Shown here: positions 36,694 through 38,610 of the stretch, in pieces
How the letters are laid out: each line of letters opens with the position of its first letter
Numbering within the stretch: the first letter of the stretch is position 1
Program-made: the position numbers and the translations under genes
Source of the DNA: Escherichia phage vB_EcoS_Uz-1
DNA length: 64,000 nucleotides
Reading direction: 5' to 3' (one strand)
Sequence record: OP312987.1
Notes under the pieces: model-generated
What the model was told of the DNA's origin: nothing
What the model saw: the letters and a program-made list of their open reading frames with translations, nothing else
Databases searched by the model: none

Positions 36694-36751
36694 TATTAGC
36701 CTCATAGAGTGGTTTGAGTTTGTACTTAAACATGACTGCGTTCATTAATAC

Positions 36752-36782
36752 TCAAATAAAAAAGTCCCCCAGAGGAGGGACT
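36752..36782 (-). terminator. intrinsic terminator at the downstream end of the tRNA cluster
   Basis: AGTCCC...GGGACT hairpin followed, on the minus strand, by TTTTTTATTTG. Confidence 0.65.
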
Positions 36783-37005
36783 TAGTAGCTTTAACGCAGC
36801 TAACGAGGCTAGGCCAGTCAACTACTACCACTAGTGTTTGTACCAGCGATGCGGGTTGATAGCCCGATAGTAGTAAACTGGGTTTGAGATTTTTAGTGTT
36901 CTCATAGCGAAACCGTCAGGGAGAATAACAATAAATAGAGCCACGGACTGTCTTACCAGTGTTGTCTTTAGAATGCTATGCAATCAGGACTATGTTCTCT
37001 ATTAA

Positions 37006-37083
37006 TGGGTGTCCACTACTGGATTTGAACCAGTGACCTTCCGATTATTAGTCGGTTGCTTTCCCAGTCTAAGCTAAGTGGAC
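37006..37083 (-). tRNA. tRNA, identity uncertain (hand fold gives anticodon loop CUAAUAA, nominal anticodon AAU)
   Basis: Hand-folded cloverleaf: 7-bp acceptor GTCCACT/AGTGGAC, D arm GCTT/AAGC, T arm ACTGG-TTCAAAT-CCAGT, 5-nt variable loop, 4-bp anticodon stem; 3' tail ACCCA. Confidence 0.7.
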
Positions 37084-37528
37084 ATAAATGAGTGAGTCAT
37101 GCCAGGCTCTAACTGGCTCCTTCTTCGCAATCCTTACATACCCCTACATAATTATTGCGTTAAGCTTTTATTGTTTAAGTTTAAGTGAAGGCGTTCTTGC
37201 TGACTCATAATTGGGTGGGCGTTTGACGAATGACTAGTTCGTTACTACCCGTTTGCCATAAGTACCTGGCGACTTTGGTTTGAGGTGGGAGTCCGAGTCC
37301 TGTACAGCCTTACCGTTCACACATTGGCAGCATATCTAGAATTGCACTTCCGGCAACTGGATTTAACTGTTACACCTCAAATATGGTAGGGGCGTCCAGA
37401 AGTCTCATCTGGTACTTACGCCGTCGTATGGTTACGACTTACCCCCATAATCTTACTAATTCAGAGTAGCACTGCTCCATGTTTGGCCTTTGAACTCCGG
37501 GATGGATTAGTGCAATGCTACTTTGAAT

Positions 37529-37615
37529 TGGTTACCAGTGAGGGATTCGAACCCCCGGTTGGAGTCTATAGCTTACCGCAGCAGCTCTCCAATCTAGCGG
37601 TGTCACACTTAGTCC
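37529..37615 (-). ncRNA. tRNA-like element with canonical T arm; cloverleaf not confirmed
   Basis: CCA, discriminator, ACTGGTA and T arm GGGGG-TTCGAAT-CCCTC present; I could not place a canonical 5' acceptor strand (only a match 121 nt away). Confidence 0.3.
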
Positions 37616-37654
37616 AAACTTGAACATATCAAGCTATCTCGTGCAACTGATAAT

Positions 37655-37722
37655 TGGTTCCGGCGTCTGGACTCGAACCAGAACACTTATGCCGTGCACG
37701 ACACTAGTACCTACACCGGAAT
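37655..37722 (-). ncRNA. tRNA-like minihelix: acceptor stem plus T arm, too short for a full tRNA
   Basis: 7-bp acceptor TCCGGTG/CGCCGGA with one G-U, U8-A9, T arm TCTGG-TTCGAGT-CCAGA, encoded CCA; only 29 nt between position 9 and the T stem, which fold as a 6-bp hairpin. Confidence 0.35.
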
Positions 37723-37784
37723 TAATTGCCAGGGATTCCACCTGGTCCATCTGTTTTTATAGTCACTCAGATATCGTCTGGACT

Positions 37785-37862
37785 GTAGGCATGGGTGGGA
37801 ATCGAACCCACAAACCATTCAGCACTGTAGCCTCACGCTCTACCTATTTGAGCTATCACACA
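37785..37862 (-). ncRNA. tRNA-like element (good D and T arms, weak acceptor and anticodon stems); possible tRNA or pseudo-tRNA
   Basis: T arm GTGGG-TTCGATT-CCCAC and D arm TA-GCTC-AAATAGGTA-GAGC at canonical spacing; acceptor pairs only 5 of 7 and the anticodon stem is poor in my fold. Confidence 0.35.
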
Positions 37863-38155
37863 CCATTGATTAACTCCCCGTTTCTAATACACGGACGAGG
37901 ACACTCCATGGTCGTTTGATAATCAGGACGACTCACTCCCGACTGACGCTTGGCTTATTAGGCTGCCATCAGAACAACATCATCGTTTGCATTTATGTTA
38001 TTGGTTCGTTTCTAAAAAACCGCATAATCGCTTACGAAAACTATCAAAGAGTACACTAAGCACAGGTAGCTACCCTGCCGTCTTCTCCACCTACACCGGC
38101 TACAGTGTAAACCTCCGCACGTTAGCTTAATGTACTCATTGATAGGATGTCAGTA

Positions 38156-38225
38156 GGTCGGGGGCTGGATTCGAACCAGCGAGAGAAGTAGCGACCATCT
38201 GCACATGCCTACGTGCTACCTCGAC
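38156..38225 (-). tRNA. probable tRNA, identity undetermined
   Basis: T arm GCTGG-TTCGAAT-CCAGC, acceptor GTCGAGG/CCCCGAC (6 of 7 pairs), D arm GCAC...GTGC; anticodon arm ambiguous by hand. Confidence 0.45.
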
Positions 38226-38610
38226 CATTATAATAGGAGGGAGGGGACGAATCCTCCCTTTATATCCTATATTGCATGTAAGATCTAACAGTTCGATGTT
38301 GTAGGTAGCTAGGCTATCCGACATTTAACCCAGCCATATAGGGCTTATGTGATTAGAATGCTCAACATTGAGCGGTTAGTTTGATAAGGGATCTGAAGCC
38401 TTATCCTAAAGATACTAACCTTTGGGATATAGCCTAAGATTCAGAAATGGCCCCTATAGGGAGAGGCCATTGATTAACCCGAATGTTGCTTTACATTTTC
38501 TGTGATAACCAATTCTTAAAATAGTCTACCTGACGGATGGGGGCCACCCCTAGCGTCAGTGCCATACGGCAAAGATTAAGTTAAGAAAGGTTATGATAGG
38601 AGTTCCTATC

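Follow-up and report, generated by a model that had tools for sequence, protein, structure and literature searches.

In the natural two-piece form of transfer-messenger RNA (tmRNA), which occurs in alpha- and beta-proteobacteria and in cyanobacteria, the coding piece carries the 5' acceptor strand at its beginning and is joined to the acceptor piece by base pairing, and, to our knowledge, every natural form of tmRNA known, the two-piece one included, holds both halves of the molecule physically together. In the tRNA region of phage T4, an array of tRNAs is accompanied by the stable RNA species 1 and 2. As for the phage-borne tmRNA gene ssrA, the exhaustive survey of 2014 found it only in mycobacteriophages (Bxz1 and others) and in Bacillus phage G, and in none of the Enterobacterales phages that carry the element described below, while the mycobacteriophage DS6A encodes little more than the tRNA-like domain, a molecule of the kind that inhibits tmRNA (Hudson, Lau and Williams, PMC4131195). 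The present analysis, computational throughout, deals with a non-coding block in a stretch of 64,000 nucleotides from Escherichia phage vB_EcoS_Uz-1 (sequence record OP312987.1; the whole stretch is called the window below), for which a preliminary description, made from the sequence without database searches, had reported five T-arm signatures of tRNA. Among the corresponding elements, four of which are termed here the tRNA-like elements TLE-1 to TLE-4, there lies a module with the anatomy of the message part of tmRNA, with structural covariation, a coding-type conservation of its tag frame and a wide horizontal spread, in which the tRNA-like domain is missing. Judging from the sequences compared, it would be the tag-coding half of tmRNA travelling alone; no description of it was found in the literature, the 2014 tmRNA survey included, although sources outside our reach may hold one.

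Matches of the tmRNA type were obtained by a permissive Rfam scan at 38061-37910, and the tmRNA_permuted model scored 33.4, 24.1, 20.9 and 20.1 bits in four unrelated phages, among which are the phage of the window, P1, HK620 and PhaxI. Across unrelated phages the conserved unit, of roughly 180 nt, is sharply bounded, from about -13/-24 to +150/+173 around GCGAYTWTGCGG. Its 5' element is near-invariant in 24 diverse modules, in which only the loop between TTTTCG and GCGA changes length. The tag frame (Table 1) has neither a start codon nor a Shine-Dalgarno sequence; in the RNA, AACAUAAAU stands directly before its GCA resume codon, and the ATAAAT in front of it provides U at -5 and A at -4, the positions corresponding to U85 and A86 in the numbering of E. 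coli tmRNA, whose role in setting the frame is established. ATAAAT or GTAAAT precedes GCA in nearly all modules, to be compared with AAUAGUC in E. coli and with AAUAAuU followed by GCa in the Rfam consensus. Downstream, the helix 5 analogue is 100% paired in 27 sequences, with a change from A-U to G-C at one pair in 11 of them, and the two stems of the H-type pseudoknot are 98.5% (S1, double changes at 3 of 5 pairs) and 99.1% paired (S2, double changes at 2 of 4 pairs) in 27 class-I modules; taken together, helix 5 and both stems give 99.1% of pairing and 6 covarying pairs out of 13, against 30-56% in the slid controls. The alignment and the pair counting were carried out class by class, as the helix registers differ between two classes of modules, and the counts cover the 27 class-I modules, while the module of the window belongs to the minority class II, in which the topology of the pseudoknot is kept with different stems and its register was checked by eye. 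In the terminal hairpin H3, the stems are wholly different among the classes (GCCC/GGGC, GGCGGGAG/CTCCCGCC, CCCTGA/TCAGGG and CCGT/ACGG), while the loop is invariant in each class. A few lineages make up most of the sequence sets behind these results, and the shuffle controls leave the phylogenetic signal in.

Table 1. Features of the RNA block, with positions in the window; those of the message module come first
Feature	Position	Strand	Description
tmRNA-type message module without tRNA-like domain (orphan mRNA-like domain, MLD, cassette)	~37874..38059	-	Rfam tmRNA_permuted 33.4 bits, E = 2e-4; beta_tmRNA partial
Module 5' element	38008..38045	-	GATAGTTTTCG-TAAG-GCGATTATGCGG-TTTTTT-AGAAAC; possible pairing of GTTTT with GAAAC, loop length variable
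Tag frame	37955..37990	-	GCA AAC GAT GAT GTT GTT CTG ATG GCA GCC TAA TAA = ANDDVVLMAA, then two stops
Helix 5 analogue	37943..37972	-	CTGA (codons 7-8) with TCAG; stop codons enclosed
H-type pseudoknot	37911..37942	-	S1 TCGGGA/TCCTGA; S2 GTCGT/ACGAC
Terminal hairpin H3	37874..37899	-	Loop conserved: GTATTAGAA here, GTGTGATTAATAA in the other class
TLE-1, near-canonical cloverleaf	38155..38226	-	Loop GUCGCUA (CGC); ARAGORN tRNA-Ala(cgc); best Rfam clan score 26.3 bits, below gathering
TLE-2, degenerate cloverleaf	37787..37864	-	Good D and T arms, 6-bp G-U-rich acceptor, anticodon stem unconvincing
TLE-3, 66-nt tRNA-like RNA	37655..37720	-	Acceptor TCCGGTG/CGCCGGA, one central hairpin (4-nt loop), T arm, encoded ACCA
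TLE-4, 124-nt four-armed tRNA-like RNA	37529..37652	-	7-bp acceptor, enlarged D-side and anticodon-side arms, T arm, encoded ACCA
Canonical tRNA-Ile(AAU)	37006..37084	-	ARAGORN; Rfam RF00005 65 bits, E = 7.6e-12; labelled tRNA-Ile(aat) in several relatives
Linker cassette	38060..38154	-	Junction 23-mer ACATCCTATCAATGAGTACATTA; also a copy of CCGGTGTAGGT, with which TLE-3 begins at its 5' end
Block A, conserved, strongly structured non-coding leader, 383 nt	38228..38610	-	Upstream of the RNA cassettes; 90-98% identity in 6 relatives
Block G, conserved non-coding, local hairpins	37088..37522	-	83-97% identity in relatives; overall minimum free energy (MFE) z = -1.1
Intrinsic terminator closing the RNA block	36762..36783	-	9-bp stem, 4-nt loop, T-run; just before the gp48-like open reading frame (ORF)

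The tag frame varies as a coding sequence does. Of 100 unique cores, essentially all have ten codons and a stop, and their peptides fall into about 19 variants with the consensus AN[DEN][DEN]xx[LMK][AMVI][AV]A, the start being GCA or GCU; the sole apparent exception in the automatic parse, that of PhaxI, was mis-anchored and, when read by eye, also has 10 codons and a stop (ANDSEVLMAA). All of 38 unique tag DNAs have their stop at codon 11; the first, second and third codon positions have entropies of 0.61/0.44/1.04 bits, the third being the most variable, and codon 10 is always GCN (GCC 16, GCT 12, GCG 9, GCA 1). The tags of other phages include ANDDLMMVAA in P1 and ANEEMYLAVA in HK620; they end in -AA or -AVA and have the length of the E. 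coli tmRNA tag. In the degrons of ClpXP, the terminal Ala-Ala is critical and the ends of LVA type are also recognised (10.1101/2024.01.29.576913), and the ends of the phage tags are consistent with this.

A blastn search with 38160-37880 returned 392 phage records from unrelated groups, nearly all of them unannotated at the match. The carriers are P1 and SJ46, HK620, Kuttervirus/Vi01-like and other Ackermannviridae, N4-like phages and siphoviruses of Klebsiella, Salmonella/Shigella phages of about 88 kb and siphoviruses of about 47 kb, and a motif scan of IMG/VR added at least 120 loci more. The module of HK620 type is present in 350 of 5426 complete E. coli genomes (6.5%), at 141 chromosomal and 219 plasmid places and never annotated; ssrA itself is found in all the 5426, and the module has no DNA similarity to it. 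Among 100,044 bacterial species representatives the motif occurs in four only, viz. Pseudocitrobacter, Escherichia and Pantoea (Enterobacterales) and a short contig of a "Bacillota" metagenome bin. A co-oriented tRNA gene lies within 1.5 kb downstream at 46 of 103 informative loci, at a median distance of 447 nt, and a tRNA on the opposite strand at one locus; the density of T arms around the modules is highest at +300..+600.

The surroundings of the module are different in different carriers. In siphoviruses a sigma70 promoter-like site, TTGACA-17-TAGATT, is found directly upstream and ends 7-12 nt before the module; in HK620 qut and the late terminator flank the module, which is part of the pR' late leader; and in P1 it belongs to the leader of the C1-controlled ban operon, between the "dicF-like region" and trnA/trnT, with a terminator preceding it. 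The P1 reference annotation (NC_005856; locus L141, 1123-1224) marks no more than this neighbouring "dicF-like region", which ends in a terminator immediately upstream of the module. STnc100-like RNAs, found in P1 (L002, 2683-2803, 37.8 bits), in HK620 (L003, about 1785-1880) and at L019 (+220..+360), have a closing stem and a hairpin that resemble an acceptor stem and a T arm, the hairpin of L019 being the canonical GTAGGTTCGATTCCTAC, and the prophage small RNAs (sRNAs) of the STnc100/PasD type may be derived from tRNA. A repeated long stem, ACAACAGGTAAGAGCA ... TGCTCTTTCCGTTGT, surrounds variable inserts of 30-130 nt beside the module in HK620 (L003, 1680-1800), at L019, L021 and L027, and in P1 (L002, 1655-1745), and looks like a cassette holder or a processing stem of the RNase III type. 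Just downstream of the module in Kuttervirus (PhaxI, L004, 1890-2030; L010), a perfect long-range stem of about 20 bp, CTCCATCTTTGAGGGCATTC / GAATGCCCTCAAAGATGGAG, encloses about 100 nt; the Kuttervirus loci also bear a T-arm element with the single-arm architecture of the tRNA-like domain of tmRNA.

The reading that we tentatively prefer, giving it a little less than an even chance, is that the module acts as an orphan tag template for ribosomes undergoing rescue, so that the stalled chains would receive a phage-specified, ssrA-like tag. It keeps the parts on which resumption of translation on tmRNA depends, namely U-5/A-4, GCA, a frame of 10 codons with a hydrophobic-Ala/Val-Ala degron, UAA, helix 5 and a pseudoknot. 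The tag frame would be translated by resumption on a rescued ribosome, the only route known for a frame without initiation signals. The entry into the ribosome might be mediated by host components, either by SmpB with the tRNA-like domain of the host tmRNA or by an ordinary Ala-tRNA reading GCA in an empty A site. The proposal that the free-standing message loads untethered on rescued host ribosomes, and that the phage rewrites in this manner the degradation tag of stalled proteins, is a more doubtful one. If it is true, ribosome rescue would have its first trans-acting template, and phages and prophages a new handle on the protein quality control of the host.

A number of results weigh against such a template. 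We know of no trans-acting tmRNA message. The conserved unit contains no tRNA-like domain (acceptor stem, T arm, CCA), ARAGORN gave no tmRNA for the window, nor any genuine one for 123 unique related loci, and neither a tRNA or tmRNA gene nor a perfect T arm occurs anywhere in the complete genome of HK620. The Rfam scores are below gathering, with 33.4 vs 47 bits for tmRNA_permuted, 15.0 vs 84 for beta_tmRNA and 15.5 vs 47 for tmRNA, the last match being to the T arm of TLE-2 only. The pairing of five modules with E. coli tmRNA, computed by RNAduplex, was no better than that of shuffled sequences, and no convincing or conserved complementarity was seen between the module and the neighbouring TLEs. 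The fold of the 5' element is only deduced, since its sequence is invariant and offers no covariation, and for the same invariance an equivalent of PK1 upstream of the tag frame is not established. In tmRNA, the last two codons of the frame take part as RNA in the recruitment of RNase R (PMC4176180), and the constraint on the last two tag codons could be partly of this kind. At the locus L023 (3200-3574), ARAGORN reports a spurious "tmRNA" with the tag AKAVRLRKCSFRCGECAG, for which it uses the T arm of a tRNA-Met that lies downstream of the module; such a call could lead to mis-annotation.

Whatever its function, a lone and evidently selected tag-coding half asks whether the template of rescue must be tethered to a tRNA-like domain. 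If the frame is translated, phages and prophages would impose their own degron on stalled proteins of the host or of the phage; if it is not, the module would naturally inhibit trans-translation or serve as a decoy in it, and this pathway is being pursued as a target for antibiotics.

Several other readings of the module were tried and rejected. A one-piece tmRNA extending over the whole block was sought through a 5' strand complementary to the acceptor 3' strands of the downstream T arms; the search gave only GCCGGTG at about 38070, which partly repeats the 5' strand of TLE-3 itself, and ARAGORN gave no tmRNA. For a permuted tmRNA using the T arm of TLE-1 there is no GGUCGGG-like strand downstream, TLE-1 closing its own acceptor. 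An antisense or kissing interaction with host tmRNA was dismissed on the null energies and because the 7-nt class-I loop match UGAUUAA/UUAAUCA is absent from the class of the window. The CCACCA downstream of the HK620 module, taken as a CCA end, is actually one strand of the closing stem of the STnc100-like RNA, and the NCCA after H3 (KP8, L048, L035, L047) is not general, the sequence elsewhere being A/C-rich only and the KP8 copy being a cassette junction. The +1-frame ORF starting with AUG (MQTMMLF and a stop) is conserved neither in its length nor in its AUG. Pairing of the anticodon CGC of TLE-1 with the invariant GCG of the module gives 8 bp and a bulge in the window and is unsupported in Kuttervirus, and the frames from GCG miss the tag, which leaves this pairing an unproven curiosity. 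As a candidate for a helix closing the module, GATAG/CTATC forms pairs in some phages only and is not conserved. An ancestral bacterial ssrA with this message was sought by the motif scan of species representatives, with its four matches only.

The T-arm signatures themselves are real. The motif GGTTCRANTCC occurs exactly five times in 64 kb, at 37021-31, 37543-53, 37669-79, 37798-808 and 38167-77, always on the minus strand and inside the block, against 0.26 expected and with none of 100 shuffles reaching five; the regular spacing of the middle three, given earlier as about 127 nt, was measured as 126 and 129 nt. The preliminary description had also stated that the minus strand bears no ORF of 60 codons or more, which is not exact: one mechanical ATG ORF of 62 codons runs from 38324 to 38136, overlapping TLE-1 and a GGGAGG/CCTCCC hairpin, and it is unannotated in the Escherichia phage Bp4. 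ARAGORN called three genes, with the unusual anticodons AAT, ACA and CGC, and Rfam accepted one tRNA, which is neither five ordinary tRNAs nor an absence of hits. Membership in RF00005, with its gathering threshold of 29 bits, needs also a cloverleaf with D and T arms, a 7-bp acceptor and a 7-nt anticodon loop; it is found only for 37084-37006, whose full cloverleaf with the loop CUAAUAA and the anticodon AAU had been recognised by hand, and not for the other four elements. A at position 34 is unusual for bacteria. It is present in two of the three ARAGORN calls (AAU and ACA; 37006-37084 and 37787-37864), and the loop of the tRNA-Ile equals the TadA substrate loop of tRNA-Arg(ACG) at the positions 32-34 and 37-38, which makes the formation of inosine on this tRNA conceivable.

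The element at 38156-38225, judged plausible by hand, is TLE-1; it has a call by ARAGORN and remains below the Rfam threshold, its best score being against the Sec model. It has neither G3:U70 nor an encoded CCA, in its St11Ph5 variant the 7-bp acceptor and the 5-bp anticodon stem are both perfect, whereas those of the copy of the window have mismatches, and its cassette is missing in 4 of 6 Gamaleyavirus relatives compared over their whole length. In TLE-2, called "tRNA-Cys(aca)" by ARAGORN at 37785-37863, Rfam matches the T arm only, and the fold is no better than in shuffled sequences (MFE z = +0.35); the element was found only in Bp4, ECBP1 and PBM-3. TLE-3 and TLE-4 had no ARAGORN call, no Rfam match at E <= 10 and no 7-nt anticodon loop. 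The fold of TLE-3, which has no anticodon loop at all, has z = -2.4, and in its homologue from the Klebsiella phage KP8 the T stem is changed compensatorily from TCTGG/CCAGA to GTTGG/CCAAC and the central hairpin is re-paired. In TLE-4, 34 pairs are 99.6% paired across 8 phages, against 26-49% in slid controls, with compensatory changes at 5 pairs, 3 of them in the acceptor stem; its loop has 9 nt, and its large internal loops are invariant. The G3:U70 identity pair of alanine is in none of the TLEs. The poor acceptor or anticodon helices ascribed to three of the elements are borne out as to the anticodon arm, which is absent from those at 37674 and 37548, whereas the acceptors of these two are perfect or near-perfect 7-bp helices followed by ACCA and were missed by the hand fold, as their 5' strands belong at 37720-37714 and 37652-37646. 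Of the five elements, one is a canonical tRNA, two are aberrant cloverleaves and two are tRNA-like RNAs devoid of an anticodon arm. To speak of divergent tRNAs, pseudo-tRNAs or tRNA-derived RNAs was right in kind, yet it overlooked that the cassettes are shuffled independently, that two of the RNAs are well formed and end in CCA, and that a tmRNA-type message, with its tag region at 37990-37955, lies between TLE-1 and TLE-2 and is the most unusual item of the block.

As compared with 16 related loci, the units of the block are independently present, absent or reordered. In KP8 the order is module, TLE-4, TLE-3, and in E20 it is module, TLE-4, while in HK2 the module and TLE-2, TLE-3 and TLE-4 are missing together, the linker is kept, and a small hairpin stands at the deletion point. 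This hairpin (L134, 1595-1630) is formed by the flanks as CTTTGATAG-gttgta-CTATCAAAG, which suggests a deletion or an insertion at a short inverted repeat. Two junction sequences, ACCAATT and the 23-mer of the linker, are recurrent, and the 23-mer is found 100% identical 3' of tRNA-Leu in KP8. The block may be regarded as an array of small-RNA cassettes on a minus-strand transcript at the end of an N4-type early/middle gene cluster, closed by the terminator at 36783-36762; the array would comprise a working tRNA-Ile(AAU), two aberrant cloverleaves, two anticodon-less CCA-ending RNAs and a tmRNA-type message of roughly 185 nt, and the host tRNA-processing enzymes presumably release the cassettes from the polycistronic transcript. 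The analysis also shows that the phage "tRNA regions" with inconsistent tRNA-Cys, -Ala, -Thr, -Val or -OTHER labels conceal distinct families of tRNA-shaped RNAs.

By its 1.95-kb query, with 95.9% identity to Bp4, no indels and identical coordinates, the source phage is a Bp4-like Gamaleyavirus (Schitoviridae, Enquatrovirinae; N4-like), and the ORF of 3576 codons at 24938-35668 is its virion RNA polymerase. The identity to Bp4 over 36700-38650 is distributed as a mosaic, 38160-37880 being 100% identical. The block is flanked on the minus strand by orf34 (38611-38811) and by the homologue of N4 gp48 (36313-36693), and the GenBank labels given to it in relatives disagree (tRNA-Cys, -Xle, -Thr, -Ile, -Ala, -Val, -OTHER, or none). 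Block A has an MFE of -119.5 kcal/mol vs -92.5 for shuffled sequences (z = -4.9, 0/100 shuffles as good) and includes a number of perfect hairpins; a structured RNA is one possibility, a hairpin promoter or regulatory region of N4 type another. The tRNA-Ile lies between two conserved non-coding blocks, 37088-37522 and 36784-37005, of the minus strand, in which a hairpin GCGTAAGTA-CCAG..CTGG-ACGCCCC is also kept in KP8; extra T-arm elements are seen in the equivalent region of KP8 and HK2. The terminator was also caught by the Rfam scan as the terminator portion of a weak Phe_leader match.

Among the rival explanations, that of an untranslated decoy or sponge, titrating S1, SmpB or RNase R and so dampening or redirecting trans-translation or non-stop decay, would suit a module without a tRNA-like domain and has a precedent in the opposite direction in DS6A, where the tRNA-like domain alone inhibits tmRNA (PMC4131195), as well as a possible basis in the recruitment of RNase R by the last two tmRNA codons (PMC4176180). 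However, it does not predict the coding signature, i.e., the variable third positions, the GCN last codon with four synonyms even though it lies in a loop, the D/E, L/M and A/V exchanges and the length of 10 codons kept in about 19 variants, and it is considered unlikely. A split tmRNA of N4-like phages, with TLE-3/TLE-4 (or the flanking TLE-1/TLE-2) as the acceptor and the module as the message joined non-covalently, is recommended by TLE-3, which consists, like the tRNA-like domain of tmRNA, of an acceptor, a single stem, a T arm and ACCA, by the tRNA-like element directly after the module in the window, KP8, E20, L012 and L027, and by the joint loss in HK2; yet G3:U70 is wanting, every TLE closes its own acceptor stem, and no module-TLE complementarity is conserved. 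Nor can it be general, because a perfect T arm is lacking within -400..+800 at about half of the representative module loci, and from the entire genome of HK620. This arrangement is held for quite improbable.

Two further explanations concern the T-arm elements more than the module. The non-canonical ones may be punctuation, i.e., processing signals (for RNase P, RNase Z/E) and stabilisers that define the ends of the adjacent RNAs, the module among them, in a polycistronic transcript; this overlaps with the explanation given above for the array and does not exclude it, except that it denies the TLEs a role in translation. The conserved junctions (ACCAATT, the 23-mer), the abutting of the elements on each other and on the module, and the real tRNAs, terminators or long stems that other phages have at the same flanking positions are in keeping with it, but the encoded ACCA, the whole 7-bp acceptors, the T loops and the invariant internal loops of TLE-4 exceed what a cleavage signal needs, and we hold it for improbable. 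Decay, with the odd elements as tRNA genes on their way to loss and the tag region as a functionless fossil of a captured ssrA, is very improbable and largely refuted for the module and for TLE-3 and TLE-4, with their compensatory changes, with the frame intact in at least 6 unrelated phage groups and 350 E. coli genomes, and with a module unlike the host ssrA DNA and, by the motif scan, apparently in no bacterial ssrA among 100,044 species representatives; decay is possible for TLE-2, with its poor fold and narrow distribution, and the mismatches in the acceptor and anticodon stems of the TLE-1 of the window, absent in St11Ph5, point the same way. Finally, the perfect T arms of all five would be expected of five ordinary tRNAs mis-folded by hand, a supposition already refuted by the one Rfam tRNA, the three ARAGORN calls with AAT/ACA/CGC, the 66 nt and 4-nt loop of TLE-3 and the 124 nt and 9-nt loop of TLE-4, and left with practically no probability. 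Against these rivals, the orphan tag template is retained as the preferred reading of the module.

In comparison with the known systems, the module resembles one-piece tmRNA (RF00023, E. coli ssrA) in its GCA resume codon, U-5/A-4 and the absence of initiation signals, and, like E. coli tmRNA, has a frame of 10 codons with an AN(D/E) start and a hydrophobic-Ala/Val-Ala end, UAA, helix 5 and a downstream H-type pseudoknot. Unlike it, the module has no acceptor stem, T arm, CCA end or long P2 helix, one proven pseudoknot and a hairpin in place of PK1-PK4, and about 185 nt vs 363; of the marks of the tmRNA clan (CL00001), the tag frame, the frame-setting bases and helix 5 with the pseudoknot are present, and the tRNA-like domain and a score above the Rfam threshold are not. 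The best Rfam match is to the two-piece (permuted) tmRNA (RF04321, RF01850), which has its message on an RNA separate from the T arm and CCA, and, as in permuted genes, the module of the window and that of Kuttervirus are preceded at 150-175 nt by a T-arm element. However, the module has no complementary 5' strand or pairing, the upstream T-arm elements are self-closing, and many module loci have a promoter or a terminator directly upstream and no T arm. The module does not belong to the two-piece type, which is defined by its paired pieces. With the T4-type arrays the block shares co-oriented tRNAs and tRNA-shaped RNAs with CCA ends on one transcript that varies among relatives, a likeness by description, and differs in that only one of five elements here is a decoding tRNA. 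The prophage sRNA clusters (STnc100/PasD, RF02076; the dicF-like region of P1) lie beside the module in promoter-proximal leaders of P1, HK620 and siphoviruses, and the STnc100/PasD and dicF-like RNAs are distinct from it, adjacent without overlap and devoid of a tag frame. Like DS6A, the module is a phage-borne half of tmRNA; unlike DS6A, it is the opposite half, and it is carried by phages of Enterobacterales.

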